A stretch of 60,239 nt of DNA, filler included, from Xylographa opegraphella (taxonomy: Eukaryota): the NCBI GenBank assembly GCA_022813865.1. It is 2 parts of 2 records of this genome, joined end to end, with 100 filler letters (N's around TTAATTAATTAA, not from the genome) between each part and the next. Parts side by side here need not be neighbours in the genome. Positions count along the whole stretch, not along the records: positions 1 to 30,368 come from JALDZX010000119.1; 1 more part is not named here. One strand, written 5' to 3'. Shown here one piece after another: positions 3,581-50,927 of this stretch. A program made the position numbers and the translations under genes. The first letter of the stretch is position 1. Each line of letters starts with the position of its first letter. A model generated the notes under the pieces. That model made no database searches. It saw nothing but the letters and a program-made list of their open reading frames with translations, and had not been told where the DNA came from.

Positions 3581-4962
3581 TAAACGATTTTTATATTTAC
3601 TAGCGATTAATTATTAATAAAAAAATAACGAGTAATCGACGATTATTATGTAATTATATTTTTAAACTGCGGCGATAATGTTATTTTGTAATAATAAAAA
3701 ATATGCGTCGAGTAATCCGAATTAATTCAAATTACGTATATTTATTATTATTTCATTTTTCAATTCGTTTATTAATTATTATTATATTGCAAATATTAGA
3801 TTACTAAATAACGTATAAAAATTTATTTGTTTTATTCGTTTTTGTTGATATAATTTTTTAAAGGTTAATTTATATTTTTTTATTTTTGACTTTTAATAGA
3901 TAAACTTTTGCTTTATCGGAAAATTTTAACTTTTTATTTAATCGAAAGAATATTCATATATACCAAAATTTTAAAGTTTTTATGAATTCGAAATTTATTT
4001 ACAAATCTAAAAAATCGTTAATTCATTATATAAATATAAAAACTATTATTGTTTCGAACTTAAATGCTAACGTCGTTAAAAATAAATTATTTTAATATTA
4101 ATAGCGATTTGGTTTATAGTAAATTTAACCCTTATCTTTAGAAAAAAGAAATAAAGGCGCTTAGCAAATATATCGTCGACTTTAAAAATTATAAAAATAT
4201 TGATTTAATTATAAATTGCGCTACGGTAAATAATATTATAATTTCGATAAAGATTTTTTTCAAATTATTTCGATTTTCGTATTATTTTAAAAGCGAGCTC
4301 GAAAACAGTAATGAATTTTTTAATAAATTAATAATAATTCTCGCAATTTATTTTTATTATATATTTTAATCGAATTTTTTTAATATTTTGAAAAAGCGCT
4401 CGAAATCGTTTTTAGTTATAATATATAATATTAAAACGTTAATTATATATACTTAAAGCGAAAATCTTAAATACGGCAATCTCGATTCTAATAAAAAATT
4501 TCTATTTAACGATATATTCGTATAAAAAATTAATATAAATATTAATTAATAGAATTGTATTATTAAATTCTTTTCATTAATTTTTATATAATTTATTCGT
4601 TTCATTAAACTCCTGGCCGTACGATTTTAAATGAAAACTTTTATATCATAGAAATCAATATAAATAATTCGTCTTAAAAGATATATATTAATACTTTTAA
4701 AATTTATAATACTTATTTCTATTAATATTTTTATTTGTGAATTGGTTATTAGATAAATTTCACGCTCGATAAATATTATAAACTTTCTTTAACACGTTTT
4801 TAATAAATAATTTAACAAAATTGTATCTTTATTAATATTATGTTTTTCGATTTTAATGTTTTTTGTTTTTATCGACGTCGTTATAATTTTAATAATCATA
4901 AAAAAACATTACATAAAATTTATACCTTATTCGCTATTAATAAAATATATTTTATATGTGTA

Positions 4963-7355
4963 TGTCACGGGCTAAAGCTGTATAATTTTAATTCCTGAGA
5001 TCTGGGTCGAAAACCTTCGGCTCTGTTATTAAGGGGTAATACCACGTAATGCCCCCGGGTTATAATAGGGTTTAAAAGCCTTTCACCTTCTTTCTTTAGC
5101 AATTAATTTTAAAATAACATAATTATTACAAAATATTTTATATTATTACAAATCCAAAGATTAAATCTTTTATTTAATTAAGGTTTTAATTCTTTATAAT
5201 TTTAATTGTTTTATTTTATTCGAAATAAGAATTTATTATACATCGCAATGCTTAAAACGCGAAAAAAAGAACGAGCTGGCGTTTAAACACAAAAAATAAA
5301 TACAGTAGCCTCGAATATTATAATATAAAAAATACGAAATTATAAATCGAAAGAATACAAATAAAAATAACTTTAAAATTTAAAGAAAACGATGATAGAT
5401 CGCTAAATAAACAAAAAATATAAATAATAATCGAACGAGCTCGACTTGAAAAACAACGTAAATTAAAATAACCAATTTTTTATATATATATTATATTAAT
5501 ATATTCACGGCGAAATATCAGCGATATACTTATAAAATATCCTTTAATTTGTTGTCAATGACATTGAATTAATGCTCGTAACGACCACGATTATAAGTCT
5601 TTAACCTCAAAAATTAAAAATTTATAATAATAAAATTAAAAAAAGTAGATAAATTAAATTAAAAACGTAAAAACTGGTTTTAACTTTTGCCTCGATTTTT
5701 TTTCGACGAAAAAGTAAAAAATTCTTTAATATATATAATTTTAAAAAAGAAAACCTCGAAATACGTATTATTGAATATATAATTAAAACAATTTTTTTTA
5801 AATATATTAGAAAAAATTTACGAACTTTCTGCTTAATATTATCGTTAATTTAATAATTAAAAGCTTTAATATATTTAAATTTATTCGAAAGTTATATAAA
5901 AATCGAATTAATTTATTTATAATTTTATAGCTTATTTTAGCCAGCTAAAAACTTATTTGCTATTATACAGCGAAAAATATACGAAAAATTATTTTTTATT
6001 AAATTACGACTTTTTCTATAAAATACTTTATTAAATTATTAAAATATTTTAATAATAAAAAAAGGTTCAATAGCTTTCGCAGTACGATTTAGAATGAATA
6101 TAAATACGACAAGCAAAAAAGCGTTATTATTTTATTGAATCGCTAGCGACAATAAAATTTTTAGTAAAAAAATTTTTAATTCGAAGGAATTTAATCAAGA
6201 AGGCTATAAACGGAAACGAAATAAACAGTCGAAACGATATAAATAACGCCAGAATAAAAAATTAATCACAAAAATAAAATAAAAAAAGAATTAGTTTGAC
6301 GTAAAGCATTAAACGTACGAAAAAAACACTTTTCCATTACGTATTTTAGTAGATATTTTGATTTTAATTTAAATAAATTTTCAATCGATTTTGTTATATC
6401 GTTAAAAAATTAACGAGCAGTGTCGCTATTTTAGCATTAACGTAACGATAACCAAAATAAAGTTTAAATTCAATTTAATAATAAATTTTTTTATAAATCA
6501 CAAATAGCAGCTATTAAAATATTATTAAATATAAACTTTCAAATTAATATAATAACTCAGCGTTTTTATCGTCGAATATCAATTGCCACGCCTAAAAAAT
6601 ACATTATTAAAATCATAAATTACAAAAAAAATAGTTACTACTATAATATTTGTAAATTTGAATATTATTTCAATAATAATTTAAGGAAATGTAAAATTAA
6701 AATTTGTATCTTTTACGTATTGAATAAAAAGGGCCCAACGCTAATTTTAAATATTTTTTTCCTTAGGAAAGAAAAATTTATAAATTAACATTAAATCGCA
6801 AACTTAACGTTTTATATTAAAAACTATTTTTAACTTTAAAAAATACAAATATTTTCGTAAAATTACTAAAGAACAACTTAATCGTTTTCGCCTTATTAAT
6901 ATTTAAAGTTTTCGTTTAAAAAAATTATAGTATTAATACACGCGTCGCAAGCATCACCGTAATATTTACGAATTTAAAAAAATATAAAAAGTTCGCCGAC
7001 GTATTCTTTATTAAAAATACCAAAAAATTTCATCGCACAAAAATTATAATTATATAATCGATTTTAAAGATAAAAGCCATTTTACAAACCTTTATACACT
7101 TTTTTTTTACAAAATTATAAACATTAGAAATTTACTTTAACGACGTTTATAACGAAGGGTTATATTAAACATTTTATTAATTCAACCGAAGCATTTTGTT
7201 TTTTGATTTTTAAAAAAACGAAAATTTTCGACTATACGTAAATTATAAAAAATTTAATAAAATAATTATTGAAAATAAATACGTATTTCTCTTTATGAAC
7301 GAAACGCTCAGTCGATTTAAAGAATTTAAAAAATTTATCAAATTAATCCTTAAAC
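4963..7355 (+). mobile_element. Truncated Ty3/Gypsy element (family H): 5' LTR ~4963-5240, gag, protease, start of RT
   Basis: Starts TGTCACGGGC. 7180-7350 reads, after de-RIP, as the RT N-terminal block (KKDG.LRLCVDYRGLN.IT..N.Y.LPL..E.L.RL...FTKL) and breaks off at the next element. Confidence 0.8.
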
Positions 7356-8229
7356 TTTTTATCCTTCGTACGTAATAAAATATTTTATATATATATATTT
7401 AAAACGATATAGATTTACGCGCATTATTATACTCGTAAATTTTTAATTATAACATCGATAATATTATCGTTTTTCGTTTTTATAATCGTCGAATTATTAA
7501 TATACTAGCTTTATATAATAAAATATTTTTAGCAGGTTGTCTACTTGCGCTTAATTTCAATGAATATTATATATAAATCATTTTTTTAAAGTATAATAAA
7601 AAAATATTTTAAGTTATTACTTTTTTTTTAAATTTATTATACTCGTAAATTTATTTACAAACGCATATACGTTTCTGTAATATATAAACTTTTTTATATT
7701 TATAATTATATTAATGCCTTCGGTCTTGAAGTTACAATAATAATTATTTTCTAAATTTTATATAATGATTTACAATTATAAAATTAAATGTCGAATTTTT
7801 TGAAATTTGTGCCGCATGTTGCTTAATAAAATTATATTAAAAAATACCGGCCGTGGTATTAAAAATAATATATATTAATCGTTTTTGGTAAGTTTATTTA
7901 ATATTCAAAATTAGGGATTTACGAAGGGGGTAAAATCTTCGGATAATATCAAAATTTATAATATACCTAAAAAAATATAGTTAAATTTTTACTTTTCAGA
8001 AAAATCGATAATTTAGATATTTTAATAATTTAATTATTAATTATCGTATTTTATATAACGTATTCGAATAAAAATTCTAATAGTCGTTTAAAAATACTAA
8101 ATCGTTTAACAATATTAAGTCGAGATTAAATAATAACGTTAAATTTAATAATTATTAGTTAAATTATCTAATTATTTGAAAATTTTTATTTTAAGATTAA
8201 CCGAAATTGTATTCGACTTGTTATCTTTA

Positions 8230-10250
8230 TTTTATCAAGCGATTTGAAATATTGATAAATATTTATATTATTTAAAGGTATATTTTTACTATATCGTAAA
8301 TTTTAATTGAAACTTTTTTACAAAAAATAAGTCAATATATACGTAATCTGTATTTAAAAAGATTTTTAATCAATAAATTAACTTTAGAAAAATCTTTATA
8401 TTAATTCCGGTCTAGTTAATATAACGTAATTAAACACGAATTATAATTAAATATTAAGATATCGTAAACATATATAAAATATAAAAGAATAAAATAAAGT
8501 TTAAATCTGGTTTTAATTAATTTTGACGGAAATTCTTTTTTTCAAAAAATACTTTGCTTTACTGCAAAATTGAAACATACTAAATAACGAAATTATTAAC
8601 GTAATCTCGCATTTGGTTCTATAAATTTTTTTAGTAAGTTAATAAAATTTATATTAATTAATAGCTTTTGGTGTCGATATTTATTACAAAAAAAGTATCT
8701 AACGAATTTAATGAAAACATTATATCGTAGGGCTAATATTGAATTATTACGTAAATAAATTATAAATAAAAGATTAAATATAATAATTTTGTAAAAGATT
8801 TTGGCTTTAATCCAATAAAAGACTTAGATTTTGAATTTGGGATAATGTGAAATACTCTGCAATGATCATATTATTTTAAGACTAATTGCTAAAAAAAGAA
8901 GGGGGGACGACAGAATTAGAAATACGATAGAAAAATATATTATTATTAATATAACTACGTTAAATTCGAATTGGCCTCAATTATTAAAGAAAATATTTAA
9001 TATATATATTATTGATAAAGCGTATTTAATTAAAAATCCGAGTACGAATACATATATATTTATTTAATAATTGAATTATAACTTTTATATTTATATCATC
9101 GTAATTTTACTCTTTGCAAAAGTTTCGAATTAAAAAAATTATTAAATATTTAAAAAATTAAGGAATATTATATTGATATAAAACCCTTATAATTTCAAAT
9201 TATAAAACATCGAATCGGATATAAATCTTTAAATACTTTTTAATAAATATTTAGTTTATATATTCAAAGTTATTATAAAAATCGCGAACGTATTTATAAT
9301 TTTTCAGATCGATTTTATTTAATCGAGCGCCTTTATAAAGAAGATTTAGGAAATAATAGTAATTCGACGTACGTGTTGATCAAAATTGTCGTTTATTAAC
9401 GAGAAGATAATTGAAAATCATTTTTCTTATTTATATATTATCGTATTTAAAATAAATTATACCAGAAAAACGCGAATATATGTTTTGGTATGCGAATTTA
9501 ATATAAAAATTAATCTATAAAAATAGAAAATTAATAAAGTTTGATAATTCTTTAATATTTTCAAAAAATTCAACCTCGCGTATATTTGATCTGAATTTTA
9601 ATATATTTAAAAATGAACTGAAGGCTTCTTCGATTACTAAATTTAAAAACGATACTAATATAATATAAAAATAATTATAAATAATATAAAAAATATTTTT
9701 TTGAAGGGATTATATTTTACGTTTTTAAAAAATAAATAAAGAAAGTTTATGAAAAATTACTTTAAAGAAAGCCTCGAAAGTTCGAGTTTTAATTTAAATA
9801 ATAATCGATATAACGATAAAGAATCTGAAAAAAGAAATTATTTAATATACGGATTTGATTATTCAAATTTTTATATAAAAATGGTTAAAATTAATAAATA
9901 TAGCGATTAAAACTTTGACTGTCGGTTAAATTTTTCTTAAGCAATCATCGATATATTTAACAAGTTATTAATTATATACTGAATTTTGATTTATATATAT
10001 ATTCATATAATAATACAGTTCTCAATCTTTAATATTAATATTACGATAATATTTGGTTAAATATATTTTCGAATATTTTTATCGACGTACAAACTATCGA
10101 GCGTATATAATATAAAAAATTAAACTTTATCGTATAATTTGTGAAACTTTATTTATTAAATATATTTAACGATTAAATTATGAAATATTAATAACATTCG
10201 TAAAATTTTGCGTGCGATAATAATCGAGCTCGACGCGTATTCATTAAATA
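8230..10250 (+). pseudogene. RIP-inactivated SNF2-family (SF2) helicase/ATPase
   Basis: 9008-9046 IIDKAYLIKNPST (de-RIP IVDEAHLIKNPST, motif II). In-frame 9098-9109 de-RIP TATP (motif III). 10021-10032 LNL* (LNLQ, motif V). 10090-10104 QTIER (QAIGR, motif VI). Confidence 0.8.
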
Positions 10251-11749
10251 ATAGCGGAAATTAAGCAAAAAATTACGACAATAAAAATTTAAAATTTATA
10301 AAATAAGTTAATTAACGTTTTTAATTTTAAATTGAAGGGTTTTGAATTATTTTTTCCTTATTTTTGAACAGATTTTACGGCAATTGCTGCGTAATGCGAA
10401 AGAGAATAAAATCAATATTTAATTATTTTTAGCGAAAATTTTATCAGTTTTACGGCGATAAAAAATAAAATAATACTTTAAAGGTGGAATTTAAAATATA
10501 TATTCTAAGTTTTTTGATATTAAATTTATTTATTTTGTGTATATATTGCCTCCCGCGCTGCGGAAGCCCTATAGTAATTGAATAATAAATCGCTATTTTA
10601 TTCATAAAATAATTATTTATTACGAATTTTAATTCTTTATGATTTTAAAATTTAATGAATAAGCGCCGAACTTAGTTCTTTTTTAAGTCAAATATTTTTA
10701 ATTATTTATAAATTTCGCTTAAAACAAGGTATTTTATAATCAATTTTTTAAGTTTTAAATTGTCTTGCAAGTAAATACATTTGTTTCAAAAATGGATTTA
10801 TAAATGATATATACACTCGATTATATTATATAAAAGGGCAATAAAAATTTTAATTTTAATTTTAAAAATGAAATTTTCTATTTAAAAAAGTCGATAGCAA
10901 TTATCGATGCAATTTATATCAATAAGCCCATAATAATTAATGATACGAGCGATAATATATTGAAATATACTAAATTACAATATTTCAAGAATATTATTTA
11001 TTGTTAATTAAGCCCTATAAAGCGCTAATGATAAATTTAACGGCGATATTGAAATTTAAAGTACGCAAGATTAATTTAAGATTTTTTAATTTAATAAATA
11101 ATAATTAATAAACGATGAATTAAATAGAGATAAAAACGAAAGTAAAGGTTTTACAATTAATAAAAACACCGACCGATATTTTTAAAAATATTTTTGAAAT
11201 ATCAATAAATTTATTTAATTTTATACGTAAAGAAATGAATACTTTATAAAATAGAATAAGTACAACGTAATATTAAAAATATTTACAATATTTATAGCAA
11301 TTATCTGTCGAACCTCGATTCGACGGAAAATAAAACCGTTTTTAAATTATTAAAAATTCGCGTTTAAATTAAACATTATTCAATCGTCGATTAAAGGCAT
11401 GCCGTTGTTTTAGCTAATATTCGTACTTTGATTTTAAAAGATTCGAAAGTTTGAAATCGAATTATAATCGACTGCGAAAGATTTAAAATATAAAAAACCT
11501 TCGTTGTTTTTCGAAACTAAATCGAATCTCGAAACAAATATAAATGTCGTTAAAATTAATTAAAATAATTAAACTTTTATTAAAGTTAAACACATTAAAA
11601 CTCCGTTTACGTCGAATAATCCCCTTACTAAACTTAATAAAAAAGGCAATTACCGTGATTATTAAAAAATAATAATTTTAACTTATTTATAACAAAACCT
11701 TGATTTACACAATACGAAAAACGTGAATTTATTGATACAATTTTATAGA

Positions 11750-14700
11750 TTATATTATTTAAATATATTTCGATATGGTCGAATATCGTGACGAATCAAT
11801 GGAATTATAGTATTTAAAAATTTAAAGGTTTTTATTTTAACATGCATTTAATAATAACGCGTATAATTTACTAAACGAGATTTTAATAATCAAAAATATA
11901 ATTTAATTAGAAAAGGATTTTAAATACGAATTCATCAAGGGTTATATTATTTTTATTGAAAGAAATTAACGCGTTATTACTATTATTACTGCGAACCTTA
12001 ATATATCGATTGTGATTGTATTGTAAATTATTAAATTCATATTATTTATCCGTGCTGGCTGTTTCGATACGTATATTATTAATTAATTTTACAAAATTGT
12101 TTACGATCGGGAATTAATAATTATTAAAAAATATAATATTTAAAATATTGTCGAATGATATATAAAATTATATAAATATTTATTTAGATTAAAAGTACGA
12201 AAAAGACGCGATAAAACTTGATTTATTTAACAAATAATTTTTATTCGAAAAATAATAAATTCAATCAACACTACCGTTCGTTTTTTACCAAAATTTTACT
12301 TAATTCGAAAAGAGTTGAAAATTATTTTTTACAACTGCGAAAACCTGGTTAATATATATATAACAAAGAGTTTTATTTTATAATCGTTTTAAATGTTTAT
12401 TAACGATTTTAAAGTATATAAAAAAATATATAAAATGGTTAAAGTCTTTTACTGAATTTTTGTAAATTCATTATATAAAGAAAACGTAAATTAATTAATA
12501 TATTTACTATATTTTTCGATTTATATAATACTAATATTAAAAATATTATAAAAGTTGTTATTAAATCGTTCCAACGACCGAATCGTAAATATATTCTACG
12601 AATAAAATATTAAAATACGTTTATATACGTGTATATTGTTATATTGCTTGAAAATATGCCTCAGCAAATAAATAATAATAAATTTTCACAATATATAATT
12701 AAATACGGTTATCGTAACTACTTATGTCCTAAAGATAAAAAATTGATTTACAGTTTAATATAATGCAATACCAACGTTATTATCTATTTATTTTAAAAAC
12801 ACGAGATACGGCTTAAAAGTTTAATATAAAAAGAATTATATAATTTAAATCAAGAATTAATATTTAATAAATTAAGCCTATTATCGTACGATTTATTTCG
12901 GCATTAAATATTATAATATTTAAATTATATAATATATTATACTTTAAGTGGCAAAAACTAGGCCGAGTTATTTAAAACTTATTATTTTTAACGAATTTAT
13001 TAAATAAAAAGACCGAGCGTATTTAAAATACTTTTAGAATTTATAATTTCCTGCGTCTTAACCTCGAAAACAAAGCTCGATATATTATGTATAATTTTAA
13101 TCGCTATTAAATGCAGGCAGAGCTATTATTTTTACCTCGTTAGTTTTAGGAAATTATGCCCAGGCAGGTTAATTTCGCCAACAGTATTTATTTATTATTA
13201 ATCGATATTTCGCAGCGCAAAGGTTATTCTTTTTTAAAAATATTATTATTTAAATTTAATAATAATTACGAAATATAATATAATCGTGAACTTTTAAAGA
13301 CATGTAACATTAAATAAAATATATATTTATTTACTCGAAGCCCGGGAGTATTATTAAAAATTTATTTTATATATAAATAATTTTAATTCTAGAACGCTTT
13401 AAAGTCTTATCAAAAACGATATTTATTTAAACGTTAATAATTTACAGGCCATATGAAATCCAATAATAAAAGAAAATATTAATAAATTAAATTTTAGTTA
13501 GATAGTAAAAATAAGTAATCAAAAGCTACAAAAGAGTTTATTCAATATTATATTTATTCGATTTTTATTAATTCGACCTTTATTAACTCGATCTCGTAAA
13601 ATATTTAATAAATAAAATAAGCTGTTCGTAGTATTAAATATATATACTGATTTATATATAACGAATAATACGAGAAAATACGTTAGAGTAATAAACAATA
13701 ATATTTTTACGAAAGAATTAAACTACAAGTAAATGAAATAAATGTATATTACTTACTTTATTTATTGATTAAATATTTATAGCTACTTTGTCGAGTGCAA
13801 TAGCTTATATTAAATGAATTGATCGTTTAAAATAATAATAATTATACTGCACTTTTAAATTTAATAAAATATATATTCGCAAAAAATATAATACGATAAT
13901 CCCTTCGTCTGAGGCTTGCTAAAACATAAAAAAAAATTTAAAAGTAATAAATTTTTTAAAATAATTTATATAAATTATATTTGTCGTTATTGAAAAATTC
14001 CTTAGTTAATCCGAAACACGTTAATGTTACGATCCTGCCTCTCACTAGTATAGTTCGATTAGGGATCTGGGTTGGATTCGTCAANNNNNNNNNNNNNNNN
14101 NNNNNNNNNNNNNNNNNNNNNNNNNNNNNNNNNNNNNNNNNNNNNNNNNNNNNNNNNNNNNNAGGAGCATTCCTGTTAGGGTCCTTTCCGTACCCGAACT
14201 ACCCGGTACTGGGTTGAACCTTAACAGTTAATCACTTTGATGCTTCTATAAATTAACGCAATTTTCGTAATAACGTGAGTTATTATAAAATTAAATTATT
14301 CATCGTTAAATTTCGATTAATTTTTTCTAATTATTATAACGTTAAATCGCTATCAAAAATTGAAAGTTTTTATTAAATACATTTATTCGTTAAACAATTA
14401 CGCAAGGTTCATAAATAAAAATACGATTTACAATACATTATAAATTTCAACAATAAAATAATTAAATAATATAGTAAAATTAAGTATATAAATTTACAAC
14501 GTAGAAAAAAATCTTTCGAAATAATAATTTTCATTATAATACGCGGTCGAAAAAGTCGATTGTTTAAATTTTTATTTATGTATACAGAAATACGCGGTGT
14601 ATTTTTCTTATTATAAAAGTATTAATTTCGAAGGTGGTCAACAATAAAACAATGCGAAATATTATACTTAATCTTTCTTTTTACTATATTTTATTATATC

Positions 14701-14900
14701 AATAAAATGTCGATATTTTTTACAATAAAAAACCATAACCTTTATCTCGTTCCTGTGCAAAAAAAATCATAATTGTATTCATTAAACGTATAAAATATAG
14801 AAATAAAAATCAAAAAATAAGGCGGCGAATAGATATTTCGTACAATATAACTAAAAATTTAAATATTTATAATACTGTACTTTATTTCAAATATTTTATT
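11750..14900 (+). pseudogene. RIP-inactivated CACTA/EnSpm- or Plavaka-like DDE transposase
   Basis: 12393 MFINDFKVYKKIYK..K.FY (de-RIP FIDDFGVHR.MY) followed by de-RIP GPHG. 12647-12730 LENMPQQ...GYRNYLCP (LGDMPQQ...GCRSCLCP). 12928-12966 YNILYFKWQKLGR (YDVPHSEWQGLGR). Interrupted by the solo LTR at 14025. Confidence 0.72.
14025..14226 (-). mobile_element. Solo LTR related to family C (contains an N gap)
   Basis: TGTTACGA...CCTTAACA termini, perfect TSD GTTAA. First 60 nt are the unmutated reverse complement of the C-LTR 3' end. Confidence 0.85.
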
Positions 14901-15384
14901 ATTAAAATTTCAAATAATAGTTTTTTCTGTCGTAAATTATAAATAAATAAATACAGTAAATTCGTAAAATATCTAATATAACTTGATAAAGGCTGGTTAA
15001 TTCTACGAAAACACAATTATAGTACGATTACACCACGATTGCACAAAGATTGCAAAATTATTTTAATAATAAATTACAGGCCCTAGCAATCAAACGCATT
15101 CGTTACGCAATTAAATCTATCAACAGTAAACTCGATTTTAATAAATATAAAACGATTATATAATAATGATAATATCGAGTGTATTTAAAATATAATTATA
15201 ATAAATTCGCTGTATATTTACCTCGCAATCGATGTACAACCGTTGTACAACAATCTTATTATTATAAAATACGATTAAACAATATCGTATACAATTAAAA
15301 TAAAATATTTTTTTAAATTTATTTTATTACTTCCTTAATTATAATTAAAACTTTTAAAATTTTACGATGGTCAAAATTATCAAT

Positions 15385-18300
15385 AATAATAAATAAACGT
15401 TAACGTACTTACGTATATCGTACGTAAAATATACATATATATTTAATAATTTATAATATTTAATTGCAGTCGTTTTTTAACGAAATTTAGTCGAAAATTT
15501 TACATATATATAAAAATACCGTGAGGCCTATTTTTTGATACGTAAAAAAATTTAACTAATATTTTTAACTTTTATTAATCAATTTTTATTAAATATTCTT
15601 TTAATATTCAATTTTATTATGTTCGTTTAATTTTTATTAAGGTTTATATTTATTTAATAACTTTATTAGCGCTTAATTCACGCTTATATTATTTAAATTT
15701 AAATTTAAATTTAGTTTATACTTTATTAAAAAGATTTTTATATTATTTTTATACGTATTTTTAGTTCCTTCGTACGTATTTATAACGTAATATTTTCTAA
15801 ATTTATAATATTTTCTGTTCCCTAGGCATAGCGACGACATTTTTAATTTTTTTTATAATTTTAACGCAATTTTCTCGCAGGCTTTTTTAATTTTTATATC
15901 CTTTATTTTATGAAATTTTTTTTAATTTTAATAGAATTGATTTTTATAAATATAAATTTACAGGGGAAATAAACGATTTCGCTTTTAATATGTTAATCTA
16001 AATCGTACGATACGTTTTGATAATAATTTTCAAATATTTATTTTAAATAACTATTAATCTTTTACGTATTATTTTTTTATACTTTTTTATACTTTTTAAA
16101 TCATATTAAATAATAAAATTGTAAGATTACGCTACATATATAATTATTAAATATATTTATTACGCTTTCGTAAATTCTGCGCCTTACGTAAACGTCAATA
16201 ATTTATTTAAAATCAATAATTAAATCGCTAGTTTCTTTTTAATCTCGTGTAAATAAAGCCTTTATTTTGATTATTCATTTTTTAGACGTTTAAAGCTTTT
16301 ATCAATATTTTAACGGCGATATTAGACTGTTTTAAATAAATTAAAACTCGAAAGATATATTTTTTAGTATTTTTATAAAATAAAAAAATTCGTATTTTTC
16401 CAATATAAAAACTTACGCCATACTTTTCGTATTGATGATTTATATTTTATATATATTTTTCTGAATTTATTATAGTTGTCTTTTATATTATTTTTATAAA
16501 TAAAATATTTATATTATTTAAACTTTTTATAGTATTAATTCTTTTACCCGATTGGGTATAAATATCAATATATTCGGCGTTAAAAAAGAATAAATAAAGA
16601 AAAAAGGTTATTTTTCCGGAATTTTAAAATGTATTTTGAATGTTTAAAACTTATATTTAAAAATTATTATTGTCGTCTTTTTACTATTTTATTTTTTAAT
16701 TATTTAATTAAATAACTTCAAATACGATTTGTTTTTGGTTTATATAATAATCGTTCGAGTCTTACGTTGTCGAAGGCGCCTTTTTAATTTAAATAAAGTT
16801 TTATAGCTATTTTACGTATATTATATTTTGCAATAATATATATTTATTTAAATAATAATTACAAGGTGACTCGTGAATTTATAGCATTTCGCGTTTATTT
16901 AAACCCCGGGAAACAATATATTTATTTTTATTATATCGCTGATTCTAATAATTATTATTAATTTAAATATTTTATATGTTATATTTAATAGCGCAATAGA
17001 TTTATATGCCTCTACGTTCTTATTATTTATTTTTATTATTCTACGTAATATTATTATTTTAGCTTTTTTATATTTCGCGGAATATATTTTATATATAATA
17101 TATACGTTGAACAGCTTATATAAATAGAGTTTAAATATGTTTACTATAGTTTTTTATTTTTTATTACAAATTTAATATAACTCGAGCGCCTGTTTGCGTT
17201 TATTTTATTGATAATTTATATAATTTATTTTACTATAACTTTTTTAACATTTTAATTTTAAATAAATCAATATAAATGTTTATATTTTCAAAGTTCGCCG
17301 TCGAGGATTTAAGATTTTTTTTAAATCTGTTAATTTTGTTTTTCCAGGTTATAGCAATAATATCATTAAAATATAACTTCGATATTTACGATAATTTTAA
17401 AAAAGGATACTTTTCGTACGCATTTATTTAATTAGCTTTTGAATTCTTATTAAGAAACTAAACGTATTTTGAATTTTATATTTGAATTCCAGTTTTTTAT
17501 TTTAATACTAAATTCAATTTTATTTTCTACGATACAAGAATATTTAATAAAGTTTTTTTCGTTAATTTATATAAAATAGATTTGCGCGCCGTTTTCGCCT
17601 GTTTAATTATAATTCTATATTTTTTAACTTATTAACTTTATAAAACGATCAATTAATAAATGATTAAAATAAAGTTTTTAATCGTGAAATTTGAACCGAA
17701 TTCGATTTTCAATAGTTTACGCTTTATATCGTTTTTGTTCAACATTTTTCATATTTCTTTTTAAAAAAATATTTATACTTTTTTGCGAATCGCTTTTAAA
17801 TTTATTTTACTTTAATTATGTTTTATACTCGAAATGGGTTTTATTATTCCCCCAGCTTAATTGGATAATTACTAAAAAATAATTAAACTAATAATTTAAT
17901 TCTTGTTTAATGCCGTCATTAATTATGCGTTCTATTAAATTTTTCTTTTACAAATACTAAATTAAGTATAATATATATATTTTTTGTTTTTCTATATAAT
18001 TAAACCTTTTAAAAAATTTAATTTAAATTTTATTTCGGCGACAAACTCGATTAATAAATTTATTATTACGTATTGAATAAATTTAACTACGCCAAACTAA
18101 TATTATACATATAAATTAAAGAATTTGAATAAAGTTTATAAGCCGCTTTCGAAAGTTATATATTTTATTTACGTTAAACTACTTTCGCTTATGGAATAAT
18201 ACGGTTTCAATAAATTATAAATATTATAAATTAATATTAAATTATTGTTTTTTAATTTATTTTATTAATTTGTTAAAGTATTTAAATTTTTATTTAGAAA

Positions 18301-20100
18301 ATTAAAAAATTAATCTTTCATAATTTAAAGTTAGTTTTTTGTTAATATATAAATATACTTTAACTCTTTGTTGTAATTAATAAGTTAAATAAAAATTATG
18401 ACTGCGAAAATTATACGTTATATATACGAACGAGTTATATTAAAGTTTTTAAATAATCAATATATTAAATTTTTTAAATTTTTTTATTTTGTAATAATAA
18501 GATTATAACCATATTTTTAATCTTACGTATATTATATTATAATATTAACATTCGTTTTATATCGTTTATGTTTTACGTTGTTTTATGATAATTTATATAT
18601 CTATTAGATTCACGCTTAATATATTCGAGGGTACCGCTTTATTCTTTAATTTAATACGAATATATTTCGCGTTATTATTGTTTTGACCGTTGATTAATTC
18701 GCTTTTTCCGAATAATATTTAATTAAAATTTAAAATATATAGCTTTTCGAGGGGGTTCGTAAAATTTAATATAAAATTTTAGTTTTTTTATTTATTTTAC
18801 GCGTTTTAAACTCTTTTATTGTATTTTTACTACGCGTTTTTAAAGGTAATAAAAACATTTATTACAATATATCGCGAATATTTCTTTCCCTTTTTTAAAT
18901 TTTTATTAAATTTTTATTAAACCATGTTTCGCAGCTTTATTTCGAGTAAAATTATATATTTTTTAATATTATTATTCGAATATTTATATTCGTTGCGACG
19001 CGTCATATTATTTCAATGATACTCGTATATTTTTAGTTATTTATACGCCATTTTATATGTATTCGTATTATTTATTAATGTTTATAATATTATATAATTT
19101 TTTTAAAAATAGTTCGCAGTTTTTAACTTCGTAAGTATTCTTTTATAAAGCTTTTTTTAATTAATACGTTAATTTATTTTACGAACGCTACCTTTACGAT
19201 TATTAATCTAAAAGCGTTAATGATTTTTATTGCTAATTTTGACTACATTCTTTAAATTATTTATAAATTCAAATATACTATTTATTACATTAAGGATTTA
19301 TATACTATACGCAAAATGATCGTATTAATCGATTATTCTTTGATTTTATATATATTATTATCAAATACGTTTTGCAATAAGTAATAACCTTCGAAATCGT
19401 TTACCAAATCAGTTCGTATTTAATATTAAATGTTTTTCAAAATAAATATTTAAAAATTATAATATCAAATTTTCGCTTACTAATTTGCGCACCGCCAGCG
19501 TTTTAAATATTTATTTTTTCAATTACTTTCAGATTTTGTCGTATAATTTTATCTAAAACAACGTTAGGGTTTTTTTTATATATTTAACTTTAATTAATTT
19601 TTGATTAATTTTTTTAATTTTTGCCATTATATTCGCGTTACGCTGTTTATTCGCCTAAATGACGACTTATATTTAAAATATCGTTAATTTTTTTTCATTA
19701 ATACGCGTGGTTTTGTCGCCAAACTTTTATTCATAATAAGTTTAAAAATTTATAAAATAGTTATATTTTATGTTTCTTAAGTTTTTTTATTAACGTTTTA
19801 ATTAAAATTAAAAACGCGATAATAATGCGTAAAGAACTATTTGATTTCTATTATTAAAAAAAGGTTTATAGTAAAAAAAATTATATTAATATTTTTAATA
19901 AATATATTTATATAACTTTCCTAGTTTTTTAAGTAGCAATCGATATTCGGCCAGTTGAAATATTTTTGATTTAAAGCCCTCAGTAGATCTTTTATCGCGA
20001 AAAAAGCTGGCGTAAATTTAATAATATATATATTCGTAAAATATAAATAATTGTTTAAATGTTTTCCGAAAATTGGTATCGCCGATGTAAGATTATTTGG
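15385..20100 (-). mobile_element. Tad1-like LINE (ORF1 + endonuclease/RT ORF2), RIP-degraded
   Basis: Minus-strand KGAFDNV (~16770), de-RIP GIPQGSP..FFNAE (~16570-16625), LLPGVQMGAR-like (~16900), ORF1-like LAVRKL (~19490). 3' end ACGTTAACGTT followed by a (TAT)n tail near 15385-15410. Confidence 0.8.
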
Positions 20101-20367: not shown

Positions 20368-23300
20368 TTATATGAGGTGAGCGCCTGATTACAGGATTTG
20401 TAATTATATAATGATATGAAAAAGCTGAATTATAACTATAAAAGGGAAAAACTTTACTATATAGTAACTCGTTAAAATGTGTAAATAAAGCAAAAAAAGG
20501 GGAGCATAAATTGAATTAAAATTCAGAATTCAGTATTTGTAATAAATTTTTTAATTAAGAACAATTCAGCGCCTACGCTAAATAAAATGCATATGTAATA
20601 TAAAAATACGTTTAATTATTTTCCTTGATCAACCCCTTTTTTCGGTGATCATAATACGTTAATATTATTTTTTTATTAAATTCAATTATTTTCGGCCGAG
20701 CGTATCGAGTGTATATTTTTTCGTATTTTCATTATAATCGTTGATAAAAGATTTTGCCTTGTTTAAGTTCTTTTTTTAGCTATTTATTATGTTCTGTTTC
20801 GTATCTTCTTTATTTAATTAAATATTTTACGATGGGTTTTCTATAGAAGATTTTCTCCCGTTCATTTAATAATCGATTAAATTTAAAGGATTTATTTTCG
20901 TAGTCGTTAATATATATCGTGGTAAATTAATTAAAAATGAAATTTTAATAAAAATCGAGCTCTAAATCTAACGCGGGGTTAAATTAAACGATTGTAAAAA
21001 TTAAATCGTTTTTTTAGTTTTAAAGTAGCTCGAATAAATTATATACTAATTGTTTTACCTTTTTAAAACCCTTCAAAAATTCTGCGTATTATAAAAAATA
21101 TTTTTTATCAAAAGCGATAGAAATACCGTGCTCTTTATATAAACGAATTATTATGAAATTGACGAACGATAAAAGAATAGCGATACATTTTTTGTCGTAA
21201 TATTTTTTTGTTAATATATTCGTAAAAGTCATTATTTTTTCGCTTTTATTCTATGTCGCTAGAAATTATACGTCGTTTTTTTTTCGCCGTGGTTCATTGA
21301 AAAATTCGCTAAATTTAATATATTTAGTTTTTTATTTAAATGTATTCCTTGCGTAATTTCGTTAACGAATTTCGTAGTAAGTATATTAAATAAATTATTA
21401 AGCGTTATTTGTAAGGCCGGCAGAAAATTCGATGAATCCTCGAATATTTTAATCTCGCGCATATATCGCAGAGCTATTTCAACCATTTAATTAATTTTTT
21501 TACTAACTATTTATTTAAAAATAATATACGATAAAATATAGTAATTCAATTTTTAAAGCTCGAAAGAGTTTTTTTATAGTTTCAATAAATATTTTCTTTT
21601 TTTATTTAAAAGTATAACTTTCGAAAGAAATTATTCGGCGATACAAAAGGATAATAGAAAATTTTTAATTTAATTTTTTGCCGTATAAATACTCTTGCCT
21701 AATATTATATCGACTGTTTAATTAAATTTATACATTACGATAAGGCAGCAGTCGTATTCTGATTGTACCTTTAATAAAATAAGAATAAAGTTTTTCGTTA
21801 CGTAATAATAAAAAATATCGAACGTTAAAATTATTTAAATTTTTTAAGGTTTATACCTTTTAATTTAATTCTTAGAGTACTATTAATAATATCTAATACA
21901 TACTTTAAAATAATATTTAAGTTGGTAAATATATAAAAAAATCGTAATTATATCGTAAATACGATAATATCCAGAATAATCGTATGAATCGTGCGTTATA
22001 TATAATAAGTTTGTTATTAAATTATAAAATATATATAGTATTTTCGACAATTATTAAATTTATTAAATTTAAGTATTCGTTGTTTTTTTCGTATGAAAAG
22101 AATGCCGCGTATATATTTACAGTATTATTTTTACGAATTTCCTCAAGGATTTTACGTTAACGAGTATCGTTTTATGATGAATAATGAATTCAATTTCGAA
22201 AAAATAATATTTTTATTATAATCGTCTACTAATAATTTAAATAATTGAATTTATTATAGAAACTTTCGTTGTCGTTGCGCGTATCGTTATTATTTAATTT
22301 AAAAATAATATTTAATACGATATAAAATCGGCCGGGTCTATATTTAACGATGAATTTGAATTTTTAAAATATTTCCAAATTTTAATAAATTATAAATTAA
22401 AATTCTAATATTTATAGTAGACAGGCTAATTTGAATTGCGATAATAATAGTTGTAAAATAATCGATATACATTATCGCGGCTAATCTTTGTGCGGCTTTC
22501 AATATATATCGAGTTTTTTTATGATTTAAATTGTATATATTATTTCTATTTGAATAGGCTAGTACCTTTTTTCTGTATTAACTGAAACTTTGTTCAAAAA
22601 TATAATAAATTGAATGACGCAGTAATTTCAATATAAAAAATAGGTCCATGACTTTAGCGTCGGTTATTTTAAAAATATTAATGTCGAATAAAATAGTAAA
22701 CGTATTTCGATGTTCGTTAATATTTTTAATAATAAATATAGATTTTTATTTCGCGTTTCTGTAACGTGGCGATGTCGCAGAAAAGTTATGAAAATAAGTC
22801 AAAATGCGTTAAGATAAACTAATTGCTAAAAACGGTTTTCAATTTTTCGAAATTTTTTTATTTTAGTTAAAATCGAATTATTTATAAATAAATTAGCTAT
22901 TATTTTTTTTCGTCGCATATTAATAACGTTATATTTTACGAGATTTCGATTAAATAATTTTTTGCCTTTTTTAAAAGCGATGTTAAATAAATATATTTCG
23001 CGACGTGATTACGAAAATATTTAGATATTTTTAAATATGTTTTGAATCTACGTAATATTGTAGAAAATTTTAAAAAAATTTTATTTATTTTCTGCAGTTG
23101 CAAGGTCGAAGGTATTAAATTTTTTAATTTAATCAATTCACGCTAAAATAATGTAAATTTTTTTTATTTAGGGCTAAATATATATTGTATTTGAGCAGGT
23201 ACGAGAAAGCTGCGTATAAATAAAAAAAGTATTTTTTTAATATATTCGAATAAATAATCGCGTCGTTAATATATATTTTATAGTAAATTTTATATTTTTT

Positions 23301-23960
23301 AATAATATCGTCGATTTTCTTTTGTATATAAACGAGGCTATAATAGTAATTTATCAATATAATATTGAACATTTTTTATTTCGATAAAATACGACTGCGA
23401 GGCGGTTTCGATAAAGGTTATAATTCGTTATCAATAAAAAATTAATCATAATTTATTATCGATATATATTTTATTTCGCGTATTACCGCGATAATCCTTG
23501 TTTATAAAGGAATAGAGTATAAATTCGAGATTCAAATTTTGCTTAAAAATTGTACATTAATTATGACACGAATTTTTTTAATTTTATTAATTTTTTTCTG
23601 AATTACGAAATACGAATAATTAAATAATATAATCTTTTAAAATTAATTTAATTTTATATATATATATTTTAATAAAATTTTTATTGACGATGTCGCGGTC
23701 TTTAAAATCGAGTAAATATATTTTAAAAATTGATTTGTAAATTATTTATTAATTGTCGATTAATAATATTTTTATTTATTTCGCTTTTAAAATATTTATT
23801 ACGTTATTATTATTTCTTTATAACCTCAAGAGATCATTTATTATTTCGACGATTTTCGCTGCGACGATAAAGTTTTTATTATAAATCATAATTTAATTTG
23901 AAAGTATTTGTTTTATTTTTTCGACGGCATATTGTACTCAGAAATATCGAAGGTTAAAAC
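20368..23960 (-). mobile_element. 5'-truncated Gypsy family F (3' LTR 20368-20544, chromo/integrase, RNase H, RT)
   Basis: LTR matches those at 40432 and 47076 in reverse. ORF 21259-21486 (VEIALRY) is integrase. ORF 23133-23372 contains YINDAIIYS (YVDD). Confidence 0.85.
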
Positions 23961-24524
23961 AAATTTACGATATTTTTATTATTTTCAAAATATGCTGTCA
24001 GGTTCGCTTCGTTTAAAAATATTAAAAAATATTAATTAATATTGTATTTTACAAGATTGTTAAAGTTTATTTTTTACGATATTATTATAAATAAAAATAT
24101 TATTCATTGTATAAACGTAGAAAAGATTTGCGTTTATTACGTATACGTAAAAACTTTTATACGTCGATTTAAAAATAAAACCGCGATGGAGGGGAAATTT
24201 TTTAATATATTAAACTATAATAAACGTTTTACGTGAGATGCAAGGTTTTGGGCTCGGGGTGCAATGCGTAATTGGCTATCAAGCTGAAACTAAGGAGGGA
24301 AGTGTTCAGGACCGCAGATTCTGATTATATACATATTGGGCTTCCTAAATGAGAAGCCACGCCCAGGATGCGAGCAGCCAGAAGCCACGCCTAGAATGTA
24401 GGCCAGCAGGCCGAACGCCACTTTGAACCCTGCACCTTACAGTATCCTCCCCCTTTCTATGCTTTCTGACCTCAGAAAGGGCTAAGATTGCTTACACGGG
24501 CGAAAAGTGTAAGGTGAATACAGA

Positions 24525-24740: not shown

Positions 24741-27700
24741 GAATATAATGTAAATCTATTAATAAAATATAATCACAGATAAAATGTAAATTAATAAATA
24801 TTCGTTAAATTTTAAATAATTATTTATCAAACAAAGGCCTCGGGATGAAAAAGTGTTTTTTATAAAAAAAATTCATTAGCGCCGATGCGTTTTACTGAAT
24901 AATTTTTACTAATTCGATAATTATATTTTTATAACTTTATTATTTATAAACATATTTATATTTGCGCTTTATATATTTTGAGTGTATTATTTCTTTTATT
25001 ATAAATTTTTAATATAGTTCGTTTTTATTTACTATTTCGATAAAAAATAAAATAATTGAGGCTCGCGTGTTTGCTTCTCGCATTTTAAAAATTTTTATAT
25101 ATTAAATATTATAAATTCTATACGCATTAAAACGATTTAATTTATAAATTTATTTTTCAATGCGTTTTATAAATTGAAATAGTTCGAAATATTAATCGTT
25201 GAATTTTTTTAATAAACGTATTATTCGAATATTCGTATTTCGCAGAAAAATTAAATCGTTTTCTTGAAATTTCATCGAAAATTAATATTTATTGTAATAT
25301 TTGGCTTAAATTTTCTGTACGATTTTAATTATATATTTTAACCTTTTTTATATATTTTTAATATTTTTCGTATATATTAAAACGTTTATTAATATTTCAG
25401 TAATTTTAACGTTTACAATTGTTTATAATCGCCAATATTTTCCTTTTTTTATTTAAAAAAACGATACTTCTGTAAATATATTAATATTAATATTATATAT
25501 ATATTTAACTAGTGGTAAATAATTAATTTAATTATTCTGATTTTAATTAATAAAAGCCGGTAGATATTGTTTCACAATTTAATTATATTTTTTACTTTGT
25601 TTATCGAATTTAAGAATAATATATCGTTGTCAATCTGAACTTGATTTTTATGGCTTTAAACAGTATTTTACAAAATTTTAGTACAAACAAAATTTCTCTG
25701 TCGCTTACAATTGATTTTAATATTATATAATATTAAAAAATTTCCTTAATCATTAAATATTTGAATTAAGCAGCGTTTATTTGAATATAATATTGAATAA
25801 AATAGGTAATTTTGATTAATTTATCAATTATTGTTATAATCGAATTATATTTCGACTTATCATTTTTATTAACTAAAAGTATAAAGCGTAAAAGTTTATA
25901 ATTATATTAACAAAGATACTGTCCCAAGAATAATTAAAAATAAATAATAATTGCAATTCTTTGTTTAAAATTACATAAACACCTTTGTTTTTTAACATAT
26001 ATCGCATATTCTAACGGAATTCCGAATAAAGTTCTTAAATTCAAGCCAGTAATAATATTTATTAATAAAATAAAATATTTTCGCTGTTTCGAAATATTTC
26101 GTCAACGAGGTATTATAAGAATTTTTTTAAACGTGTTTTTTATAATATAAATAAAACATAAAATTCGTTGTATTCGAAGAATAATAGGCCGTCGGTAATA
26201 ATAAAGTTTAAATATACCGTCGATATTATAATTACGAATTAAAACGTATTGTTTTTTAATAGTAGCTATTTAATTTAAAGCAATAAATTAATTTGAATAT
26301 CATTGAGTACCGCGATTAGATATTCTTTAACGTTTTCTATTATCGTCGATTCGCGATTAAAGAATTTTTTTAAAAAGATTTAAAAAAAATCTTTGCGTAA
26401 ACAAGTTATAATATAGATTTCTTTTAATTTAAAATTATTTATATAACTTACGCGTCTTAAGAACACGTTAGCTAAATTTGATCTTTTAAATACGTATAAA
26501 ATAACGAGGTCGAAATTAATAAAGTATTTTATTTATTGCGTTTAACATCGCGATAAATTTATTATAATATTAAATATTTGCAGATTATTATTATCATTAT
26601 ATATTATATTTCTTTACGACCTCGAGGTAATGTTTTCAAGCTTTAAAATCGCGATAATAAGTAAAAATTTATTATTTTCTGTAGTATAATTTAGCTCGAG
26701 AACGATCAATTTCCTTAAATAAAACGCCCGATAAATATTAATAAATATTCTTTCTTTAAAAAATTTCCACGATTGCGAAAGCGCTTACGTCGTAATATGT
26801 AAAACGTCGTTTTTTCGATAAAAAATATTTAAATAAAAATGCTTTCAAAAAATGTCGATTTTAGCTTTTCGAATATTAATACTGTTGCTATAATTATGGC
26901 GAAAACAATAAATGCTTTCTTTCCTGTCAGATTTGTTATAGCTATAATTATTTTGTTATAATAAAAAATAAAGCGTCGATAGAAATTCGTAAAATCGAGG
27001 AAAGCTTGAACGTTTTTAAAATATTTTGATACAAATTAATTTAATATTATAATAATTCGAGATAGATCCATGTATATGTTCAACAAAAATTATAAATTTT
27101 AAGAAATCGATGAATTCAACGCTAAATAAACATTTTAAAAAAAATTTACGCAATAAATTTAGTACTTCTTTTACGTTTTTTACGTAATTTACAAAATCGT
27201 TCAATAATATCAAAATACCGTCAAGGTACGTAATTGTACTTTTGTTGATTATTAAGCGTAAAATAGTATTAGTATATAATTAAAATATCTCAAGGGCATT
27301 ATTAAACTGGAAAAATATAATATAATGTTCAAAATTCTCGTATCGTATTTGGAACGTCGTTATTTACTCCCGGCCATATTGAATTCGAATTAAATTAAAC
27401 ATTGTCGTTGAATTTAACCGTATAAAACGCCGGGCTTTTAATAGTCGATCCATTGATGTAAAAATCAATAAAAAAGGGTATTTATTTTTTATTGTAAATG
27501 CATTTAGACTAAGAAAATCCATATATAATTTTAAAAAATAATTATTTTCTTTTACAAAAAAAATAAGCGCGCCTGTTAAATTTATAAAATTTTTAATAAG
27601 TTTTAACGCCAAATTTGTATTTATAAAATTTTTTAACGTTTTAAACTTTAATTTAAAGAGGCTGTTTAAAAAATCGGAAGAAAATATGCTGTTTGGCAGA

Positions 27701-28392
27701 AAATTGAATCTATAAATTAACTCCAGGGCGATATTTAAATAATATAGTTATTTTGGATTTACTAAAAACGTTTATAAAATTTATATATTCCTTGGGAAAT
27801 ACGGGTGGCTTGATATTTAATTTTATAATTTAAATTATTATTATAATATCGTTAGATTTTCAGGTGCGTAGTGCGATATTTGCGTTTATAAATAAGATTA
27901 ATAAAAAAGTTTTTTTATAATAAAATACTTCGAGTTTTCCAACCGATATTTAAATTATTTCTATAAGTTACGACAGTTCCAAAATCATATTGTATTTTGA
28001 ATCAAATTATTACTCGAAAAAGCTATTCGTATTTGATTGTACCAAGTTTATTAGTAATAAAATAATAATTCTTTATAAATTTCGATTTTAAAATTTATTG
28101 ATGTATTTTTAATATTAAAAAAAGCTGTCAAGTATATAAACTTTAAAATTTATATAATGATTTATATACGGAGAACGAAATTTGCTATTACGTCGCAGTT
28201 AATTAAATGATTTAATATACTATTTTATGCATAAATTTAACTAATAAAATAATACGAATTAACCAAAATCGTTAGATATAAATTATTTGAAATCGAGCAC
28301 GTATTTCTTTACGATATTTTTATTTCCGCGGCGAAGCGTTTCTCGCAGTAAAATCGTTTCATTTTATATTGTAATTATTAATATAGTACTCG

Positions 28393-28472
28393 ATAAAATT
28401 ATAAAAATTATAAAAATTATAAAAATTATAAAAATTATAAAAATTATAAAAATTATAAAAATTATAAAAATT
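28393..28472. repeat. 9-bp minisatellite (ATAAAAATT)n
   Basis: About 8-9 near-perfect units inside element E; absent from the homologous segment at ~47950-48000. Confidence 0.9.
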
Positions 28473-50223: not shown

Positions 50224-50927
50224 TCAGGCTGCGTTCTCCCTCCTCCTTGCCAACCCAACCCTTCCCGCTTGCTCGATCGCAAGCTGCACCTCAACAAGCC
50301 TTCCGATGCCTTTCTTCCATTCTTCGCATAGACCATCCATTTCTCTTTTGACTCCCTCCTGGGTGAACTGCCTGATTTGACCCACCTCTCCGATCTGCTC
50401 CTTCGTCTCAAGAAGCTTCCTCTCAATTTCCTTGAGAATACCCTCCAGTTGAGCATTGCCGATCAACCAAGCGTTTTTGCCAAATTGATTTAGGAGCATA
50501 AGATTCTGTAGTCGCGTCTGTAAATGAACAGAAGATGCGTAAGAATCCTGAAATTTAGTTTTCCACGCTTCCAAGAACTCAGGGTTGGTTTCATCGGATG
50601 TCGTTCCACTGGTAGCTGGAGCTTCATGAATTTCGTAGCGACCGACGTTGATCACTGCTAAGCATTGTTTGCCAGCGACACGCTCAATTTCGACGTCGTT
50701 CAAAGAGAGCTTGGGCGAAGGGAGAGCAGGGAGTAAAGGATGTAATGTGCAGGCGTAGGTTTCGGGGAGCTCTTTGGCGAGAAGGGCATAGACTTCAGTA
50801 CGCGCTTGTGCAGAGATATCAAGATCGATGTCTAATACCATCATAATGAGCAAGTTTGATTCAATAACAGGAACAACAAGATGATCTTACAAGGTAAAAA
50901 GTCATAAATCACTCGAACAATAAACAT
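50224..50927 (-). CDS. SPF27: Pre-mRNA splicing factor SPF27/BCAS2 (Cwf7-like), 2 exons: 50927-50891 and 50831-50224, ~214 aa
   Basis: A 59-nt GT..AG intron (50890-50832) restores the D.LPYID motif. NL.LL..FGKNAWL.GN.QLE and the C-terminal coiled coil are typical of the BCAS2 family. Confidence 0.9.

Follow-up and report, generated by a model that had tools for sequence, protein, structure and literature searches.

A dead RAG1-fold transposase gene and a probable SNF2 ATPase relic, possibly parts of one Enton-like element, in the genome of Xylographa opegraphella

A 60,239-nucleotide stretch of the Xylographa opegraphella genome (assembly GCA_022813865.1; two parts joined end to end, filler included; hereafter the window) contains, on its + strand, the remains of one and probably two genes altered by repeat-induced point mutation (RIP). 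One, at 11399-14502, is a dead copy of a transposase gene from a family found widely across Pezizomycotina, whose catalytic core is predicted to have the fold of RAG1. The other, at 8.85-10.2 kb, is probably the remnant of an SNF2-type ATPase. We read both relics as what is left of a single En/Spm-derived fungal transposon with several genes, of the kind named Enton, and put the probability of this reading at about 0.5. An earlier note on this DNA had proposed such a pairing, of an SNF2-type helicase with a CACTA/Plavaka-like transposase, in a fossil giant transposon at 7360-15385.

Composition of the window and RIP-aware alignment

The GC content is about 20% nearly all along the window, and 18-22% across 7-15 kb. 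CpG is enriched about 4-fold in the composition of the window, and the ratio (CA+TG)/(AC+GT) is 0.55-0.82 in the AT-rich parts, compared with 1.02-1.09 in two genic islands. The excess of CpG, the depletion of CpA and TpG and the AT-richness together indicate a RIP-type composition; with the C>T/G>A transitions described below, the stretch has the features of RIP-mutated repeats. Among the open reading frames (ORFs) overlapping 6000-17000, 13 are of at least 40 aa and the longest has 78 aa, which bears out the earlier claim that no usable ORF survives.

RIP acts on duplicated DNA. When its transitions may be reversed freely, a four-residue motif of the length of DEAH has a few chance occurrences per 8 kb, by our own estimate rather than by computation. 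The presence of motifs alone proves little, and a test with a proper null was therefore built. Protein profiles were aligned locally to the DNA, with each profile column emitting the observed codons through a RIP channel, in which C>T and G>A occur at a rate of 0.6 and other changes at 3%. The background model was a random protein subjected to the same RIP channel. The alignment could cross frameshifts and long gaps in the DNA, and nulls were taken from dinucleotide-preserving shuffles, from the opposite strand and from the remaining window. The outcome was insensitive to the RIP rate assumed. Reference-free detection of coding regions by purine/pyrimidine codon periodicity was too weak to be of use (0.558, 0.505 and 0.506). 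RIP-aware profile alignment lets relics of 20% GC be annotated with statistics, and could be extended to AT-rich fungal compartments.

A dead transposase gene copy

Alignment of a transposase profile of 967 columns, built from 42 sequences, gave 489.9 bits for a RIP-mutated and frameshifted relic at 11399-14502 (+), covering columns 70-966. The - strand gave 27.5 bits, 40 shuffles gave a mean of 24.2 and a maximum of 36.0, and no score exceeded 27.5 elsewhere in the window. Comparison with the nearest homologue, P0006, showed 196 identical codons out of 754, and 468 (62%) that are RIP-compatible; 272 codons thus match P0006 only after transition reversal. Wrong-frame controls gave 147/754 and 129/754 (17-19%). 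Against the same homologue, the frame of the relic is broken by 41 stops and shifted by five 1-nt deletions and one 1-nt insertion. The sequence from 11.4 to 14.5 kb is thus what remains of a CMC/Plavaka-like DDE transposase gene killed by RIP, with a few later 1-nt indels. A Logan contig of a public run, possibly the source of the DNA, reproduces 5901-14050 without difference, so that the indels are not peculiar to the copy in the window. The deletions, at 12238, 12480, 12743, 12997 and 13254, are spaced about 255 nt apart, which is oddly regular, and each lies inside an A/T run; the sole insertion is at 12120.

The catalytic motifs of the family can be located in the relic, and are numbered here after the intact relative P0034. 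The first catalytic-Asp motif is at 12396-12413 (+), where FINDFK derives from FIDDFG with the invariant D397. The second, at 12650-12736 (+), includes the C(2)C motif and reads ENMPQQ..GYRNYLCPKD from GDMPQQ..GCRxCxCPK[DE], with invariant D480, C499 and C502. At 12931-12966 (+) the relic has NILYFKWQKLGR from DAPHSEWRGLGR, with invariant D574 and S578 and near-invariant H577 and E579. A block at 13607-13747 (+), LNIYTDLY...TKELNYK from PNVHAGLH...AGELKHK, contains H(3)H and the candidate catalytic Glu, with near-invariant H792, H796, E816 and H819. At the sites of D397, D480 and E816 the codons of the relic are AAC and AAT, both RIP-compatible with Asp, and GAA, an unchanged Glu. The transposase motifs that had been read earlier at 12396 (FIDDFG), 12650 (GDMPQQ..GCRSCLC) and 12931 (D.PHSEW.GLGR) are present, and are reached by C>T/G>A reversal only: at 12650 the raw reading is E-N-M-P-Q-Q ... 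G-Y-R-N-Y-L-C, and at 12931 it is N-I-L-Y-F-K-W-Q-K-L-G-R.

Upstream of the motifs, the transposase-like frame has begun by 11399 (profile column 70). The gap of 1.4 kb that the earlier note thought able to hold a third gene is taken up largely by the N-terminus of the transposase. From the end of the last SNF2-like block at 10212 to column 70 about 1.2 kb remain, and within this spacer the GC-retaining patch mentioned in the same context was found at 10548-10570.

The C-terminal part of the relic is interrupted by a high-copy short repeat (14011-14084), followed by a run of N (14085-14162). Summed contig depth reaches 34,242 in the bin 13723-14123, compared with about 200-490 in most other bins. 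The short repeat recurs in inverted orientation at 136-211 and 34319-34391.

The transposase family and its predicted fold

Metagenome contigs were searched with the degenerate DNA form of the pattern D.P[EQ]Q-x14-C[RP].C..P[KR][DE], which matched exactly one contig, L125. Its intact open frame, P0001 (443 aa), contains LFIDDFG, LGPHG, IGDLPQQ, GCRFCFCPKEE and DVPHSEWRGLGR, and thus carries in one protein every transposase motif of the earlier note. A search with P0001 gave 41 longer homologues, and an alignment of 36 of these, used as a query in turn, gave 135, in both cases at E <= 1e-3. Of the 135, 120 were listed, and precomputed Pfam annotation is counted over these. Among the matches listed, all organism-named homologues are from Pezizomycotina, including many lichen fungi, Coccidioides, Blastomyces, Xylariales, Morchella, Trichoderma, Aureobasidium and Elaphomyces, and those with a product name are labelled hypothetical or uncharacterized. 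Several genomes among them hold multiple distinct members (three in Blastomyces percursus, two each in Xylaria longipes and Chaenotheca gracillima). Intact members include proteins of Pyrenodesmia sp. 2 (P0012), Gyalolechia fulgens (P0011), Coleophoma cylindrospora (P0022) and Coccidioides posadasii (P0056). A scan of viral contigs for relatives gave 26 pattern matches, of which none was confirmed.

In the available text of two papers, a layout of D, D, C(2)C, H(3)H and E defines CMC elements and is common to Transib and RAG1 (PMC12730594, PMC4592977). The 36 aligned homologues have this layout. D397, D480, C499 and C502 are invariant, and H792, H796, E816 and H819 are near-invariant; to judge from the alignment, E816 is the likely catalytic Glu that completes the D, D, E triad.

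An AlphaFold model of P0034 (pLDDT 79.1, pTM 0.78) was compared with known structures. Foldseek returned 41 matches at E <= 1e-3, with RAG1 first (E 2e-6), and VIA-align gave Z-scores of 12.6 for RAG1 (453-473 residues aligned, model residues 66-879), 11.7 for the amphioxus RAG1-like transposase (BbRAGL, of ProtoRAG) and 10.2 for HzTransib. The model thus predicts an RNase-H-like core with a long insertion domain of the RAG1/Transib type; the likeness is to the sister group, as no CMC structure is solved. Over the 400-476 residues aligned in these comparisons the predicted catalytic-core fold is shared, whereas sequence identity is 9-12%, and a PDB sequence search with the transposase profile returned only two meaningless CYP51 matches (E about 0.3). 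The family also differs from RAG1, ProtoRAG and Transib in being fungal and in having an inserted BAH domain. In the model, residues 177-370 match the BAH domains of ASI1 and ORC1 at Z 10.3 (139-142 of 157-159 residues aligned), and correspond to about 11.8-12.25 kb of the window in the relic. Pfam did not detect this insert in the 26 homologues searched. The predicted BAH domain may be a chromatin-targeting module.

Plavaka transposases are described by Pfam PF18759 (Iyer et al. 2014, as cited in the available text of PMC5751038 and PMC12730594). Like the relic's family, they are CACTA/En-Spm-related fungal DDE transposases, and a precomputed PF18759 match is present in 6 of the 120 listed homologues. 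In our own Pfam searches, P0001 had no match and 25 of 26 homologues had none; the remaining one matched Plavaka at 16.4 bits (E 0.0057), so that none of the 26 reaches the gathering score of 26.3 bits. A D.P.Q motif followed by C..C..P is presumably common to Plavaka and this family. Plavaka elements are mainly from basidiomycetes, whereas the present family is from Pezizomycotina, and we know of no described Plavaka with an inserted BAH domain. On these comparisons the family is a distant relative of Plavaka without clear membership. As to the label CACTA/Plavaka-like, the kind was right, given the CMC signature, the 489.9 bits and the RAG1-like fold, and the Plavaka part falls short of the family threshold.

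Assignment to a CMC-type, RAG1-fold, distantly Plavaka-like and BAH-bearing family is well supported. The signature, the modelled fold and the modelled BAH insert belong to the intact relatives, and were mapped from them onto the relic. The family occurs widely in Pezizomycotina, and Pfam has no model for it.

A probable SNF2 relic upstream of the transposase

The four SNF2 motifs listed in the earlier note are also present on the + strand by C>T/G>A reversal only. At 9014, D-K-A-Y gives DEAH, and at 9098, in the same frame, I-V-I-L gives TATP; at 10021, L-N-L-stop gives LNLQ, and at 10090, Q-T-I-E-R gives QAIGR. The motif II block extends well beyond DEAH. The sequence IIDKAYLIKNPST at 9008-9046 is RIP-compatible with DEAHLIKNPST, in agreement with the SNF2 motif II consensus DE[AG][HQ]x[IL]KN.

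Two profiles built from disjoint protein sets were aligned to this region. Profile 1 comprised 75 bacterial or archaeal ORFs picked by a DEAHxIKNP pattern. Profile 2 comprised 60 ORFs from Bacteroidota and Pseudomonadota picked by Pfam PF00176 alone, and is independent of the relic. On the + strand of 7360-15385, profile 1 scored 40.5 bits, which was reached by none of 200 shuffles (mean 20.7, maximum 33.2); the - strand gave 17.5 bits, and scores elsewhere in the window did not exceed 25.6. Its alignment runs over 8939-9073 (IIINITTL...IIDKAYLIKNPST) and, after a gap of 486 nt, over 9559-9804. Profile 2 had its best match at 8854-9112 with 32.0 bits, a score that 1 of 200 shuffles reached; it gave 21.3 bits on the - strand and at most 25.4 elsewhere in the window. 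With either profile, no other site in the window, on either strand, scores as high as the segment at 8.85-9.11 kb (+), and the motif II block is above chance at about the 0.5% level for 8 kb. Since the references of profile 1 had been chosen by motif II, motif II columns were masked as a control; masking of only H and P left 33.4 bits, reached by 1 of 200 shuffles.

We annotate 8854-9112 (+) as the relic of a probable SNF2 ATPase N-lobe, consisting of a 'TTL' block, motif II (IIDKAYLIKNPST from DEAHxIKNPxT) and possibly a contiguous motif III (IVIL from TATP). A possible SNF2-specific block after motif III is at 9559-9804 (+), of the type W.LL.FL.. and LRR.K..V..LP.K, with chain scores of 8.8 + 21.7 bits for profile 1. 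A possible C-lobe with motifs V-VI (LNL*, DVQTIERI) is at 10021-10212 (+), in the same frame as 9559-9804. Here profile 1 has a match at 10051-10212, on QAIGR, with 21.2 bits, which is collinear and 250 nt downstream of that block. Over 8 kb, 24 of 200 shuffles reached this score; in the 1.5 kb that follows the N-lobe, 7 of 400 local shuffles did, as did 2 of 74 natural pieces of 1.5 kb. With softer gap costs the null rose equally (122/300 shuffles).

Taken together, an SNF2 relic is probably real here, and is probably truncated or interrupted. Of the helicase proposed earlier, the motif II block stands, at 40.5 and 32.0 bits and as the window's best site; motifs I/Ia were not found in the stretches searched upstream, and motifs V/VI are weakly supported.

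A helicase of the RecQ type in an AcademH element was also considered, as a RecQ helicase is reported in Academ elements in the available text of PMC3627910. This candidate was rejected because the IKNP context of motif II and the upstream TT-L block are of the SNF2 type.

Entons and Sly1-1

Entons are fungal En/Spm-derived elements with 5-6 conserved proteins, named in a meeting report of 2012, and credited with an SNF2 helicase in a paper of 2013 (PMC3520738, PMC3627910, in the text available of each). The present locus resembles them in being fungal, in its En/Spm (CMC)-derived transposase, in its probable SNF2 helicase and in what would be a large multi-gene element; the comparison is by description only. 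With respect to the defining pair, an En/Spm-derived transposase and SNF2 in one element, the transposase of the locus is of the CMC kind and the SNF2 relic is probable. In the literature searched, the name Enton occurs nowhere beyond these two papers, and no pairing of Plavaka, EnSpm or CACTA with a helicase or SNF2 was found except in the Enton sentences. The novelty that had been implied for the pair of helicase and transposase is thus not upheld, as the available text of the same papers has it in print as fungal Entons since 2012-2013. If the link between SNF2 and transposase holds, the locus is a new, dead member of the poorly documented Enton kind.

Sly1-1 of Neurospora crassa measures 11.5 kb and belongs to the CMC superfamily, according to the available text of PMC4592977; it has C(2)C and H(3)H motifs and a second gene, RIP-mutated relic copies of about 12 kb, and a homologue in Coccidioides. 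The suggestion in the earlier note that the element is large and comparable in type holds in outline. Like the relic, Sly1-1, the best-described of its superfamily in ascomycetes, represents an ascomycete CMC element, and a Coccidioides posadasii protein is also among the listed members of the relic's family. N. crassa and Chaetomium are not among the 120 listed homologues; Sly1-1 itself was compared by description only.

One element or separate remains

If the two relics are parts of one Enton-like element, its transposase would cut and paste the element, the BAH module might bias the transposase toward particular chromatin, and the SNF2 motor would move nucleosomes at the donor or target site, or counter silencing. 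The host would once have had the element in more than one copy, and RIP would then have brought its GC content down to about 20%. RIP has altered the SNF2 region no less than its surroundings; as RIP acts on duplicated DNA, this implies that the region was itself once repeated. The motif II block lies about 2.3 kb upstream of the transposase relic on the same strand. A single Enton-like element is, in our judgement, about an even bet, and a number of results weigh against it. The ties between the relics, namely proximity, shared strand and the Enton precedent, are circumstantial, and the remaining points are given with the two alternatives.

The SNF2 resemblance could be a product of chance, arising from AT-rich sequence and the freedom of RIP reversal, so that only the transposase relic is real and the locus is a one-gene or a Sly-like two-gene CMC element. 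The second gene of Sly1-1, NCU09968, is divergently transcribed and of unknown function, and no helicase is reported for it in the available text of PMC4592977. When all nine motif II columns of profile 1 were masked, the score fell to 26.9 bits, reached by 9 of 200 shuffles, and the remaining signal is marginal. The two profiles place motif III differently (profile 1 at 9559, profile 2 at 9098, within 9086-9112), and profile 2 confirms neither the block after motif III, where its best match coincides in position with that of profile 1, ending at 9768, but has 16.9 bits (92/300 shuffles), nor the C-lobe, where 117 of 300 shuffles reach its score and its best match lies elsewhere. Motifs I (GxGKT) and Ia were absent from the upstream searches, for which the bacterial SNF2 profiles have limited sensitivity: 7439-8938 gave 13.0 bits (254/300 shuffles), 6439-8938 a score reached by 273/300 shuffles, and 3581-5080, beyond a neighbouring inverted-repeat unit, 14.2 bits (145/300 shuffles). 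The shuffle nulls are heavy-tailed, with maxima of 33.2-36.3 bits, and because the earlier note had scanned 60 kb on both strands, we estimate a look-elsewhere factor of about 15 on the 8-kb p-values. Pfam found no families in the three + strand frames of 7360-15385, with X at stops and at E <= 10, and phmmer with the X-read SNF2 region 9469-10302 found no matches in 1.84 billion proteins. The missing Pfam match to SNF2-rel_dom or Helicase_C carries little weight, because it is expected after heavy RIP. Against an origin by chance, two profiles from disjoint sets agree on the same ~250 nt, with 40.5 and 32.0 bits compared with at most 25.6 and 25.4 elsewhere; the match comprises ten SNF2-specific residues (DEAHxIKNPxT with the upstream TT-L block) rather than a mere DEAH; and the site adjoins a transposase verified as En/Spm-type, next to which an SNF2 would be expected from the Enton precedent. 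We consider a chance resemblance unlikely, with appreciable weight. Alternatively, both relics may be real and unrelated, the SNF2 part having originated in a different repeat, or in a duplicated gene of the host, that came to lie beside the transposase relic among nested RIP-mutated repeats. Repeats of several unrelated families form a mosaic in the window, and the inverted-repeat unit ends 32 nt before the SNF2 block, so insertions have occurred here; the SNF2 relic also looks truncated, given the missing motifs I/Ia. No SNF2 fusion was present among the 120 + 41 listed transposase homologues. A RIP-aware search for terminal inverted repeats (TIRs) between 6000-11400 and 14400-16600 gave 22.8 bits, within the null (mean 23.8, maximum 31.2), short TIRs being undetectable in a single RIP-mutated copy. 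In the window, a second copy of the SNF2/transposase part was found neither in nucleotide nor in purine/pyrimidine space; true repeats show 82-96% identity in the latter, and within this part only 14011-14084 does so. Nor did contigs of three public runs, compared at a likeness of at least 80%, contain another long copy of either the SNF2 or the transposase body: two contigs tile the window exactly (4500-5916 and 5901-14050), the other matches were short pieces, and two of the runs cover almost none of this sequence. What speaks for a common origin is that the relics share a strand, with about 1.2 kb from the last SNF2-like block to the start of the transposase, and that Entons are a published precedent for exactly such a pair, in the available text of PMC3520738 and PMC3627910. 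A single-copy host SNF2 gene, moreover, would escape RIP mutation to 18-20% GC. We regard unrelated relics as improbable.

Implications

The relic itself is dead, and is ordinary RIP debris. The unannotated RAG1/Transib-like, BAH-bearing family to which it leads bears on the origin of RAG-like recombinases and on chromatin-targeted transposition. If the SNF2 link is true, it would give a concrete handle on the Entons, which are barely documented (a meeting report and one sentence of a later paper). Tentatively, and with the odds against it, the locus may be the first locatable Enton-type sequence trace in lichen-forming fungi, in which a BAH-bearing RAG1-fold transposase would travel with an SNF2 motor and so read and remodel chromatin, with intact, possibly active copies in Teloschistaceae and other Pezizomycotina and with a structural link from CMC to RAG1/Transib.

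Neighbouring repeats and genes

A unit of 3.8 kb at 5081-8907 is bounded by a 138-nt inverted repeat, with arms at 5081-5217 and 8907-8770 (92% purine/pyrimidine identity, 196 bits), and may be a foldback or a nested TIR element. Its right end is 32 nt short of 8939, where the profile 1 motif II block starts, and it overlaps the weak extension (8854-8928) by which the profile 2 alignment reaches upstream. In silico excision of the unit left the score of 40.5 bits unchanged and rejoined no split SNF2.

Four further repeat pairs, with 73-90% purine/pyrimidine identity, were found in the window: 20371-24244 with 47251-43479, 31829-33910 with 53205-55313, 27667-29696 with 47253-49108, and 15557-19215 with 36229-39925. 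The repeat family that starts at about 15.3-15.6 kb sets an outer limit to the right end of any transposase-containing element.

Single-copy genes survive between the RIP-mutated blocks, in two islands of normal GC content. One holds an intact gene at 50224-50853 (-), probably for a BCAS2/SPF27-like protein, a name given from reading the translation. The other, at 56564-58743 (-), holds a likewise intact gene for a CBS/PB1-domain protein. The housekeeping ORF of the latter, 57538-58473 (-), matches a Xylographa opegraphella protein at 100% identity across 92% of the ORF, and proteins of two further Xylographa species at 99% and 98%. By this ORF, the host is a Xylographa-like lichen-forming Lecanoromycete.

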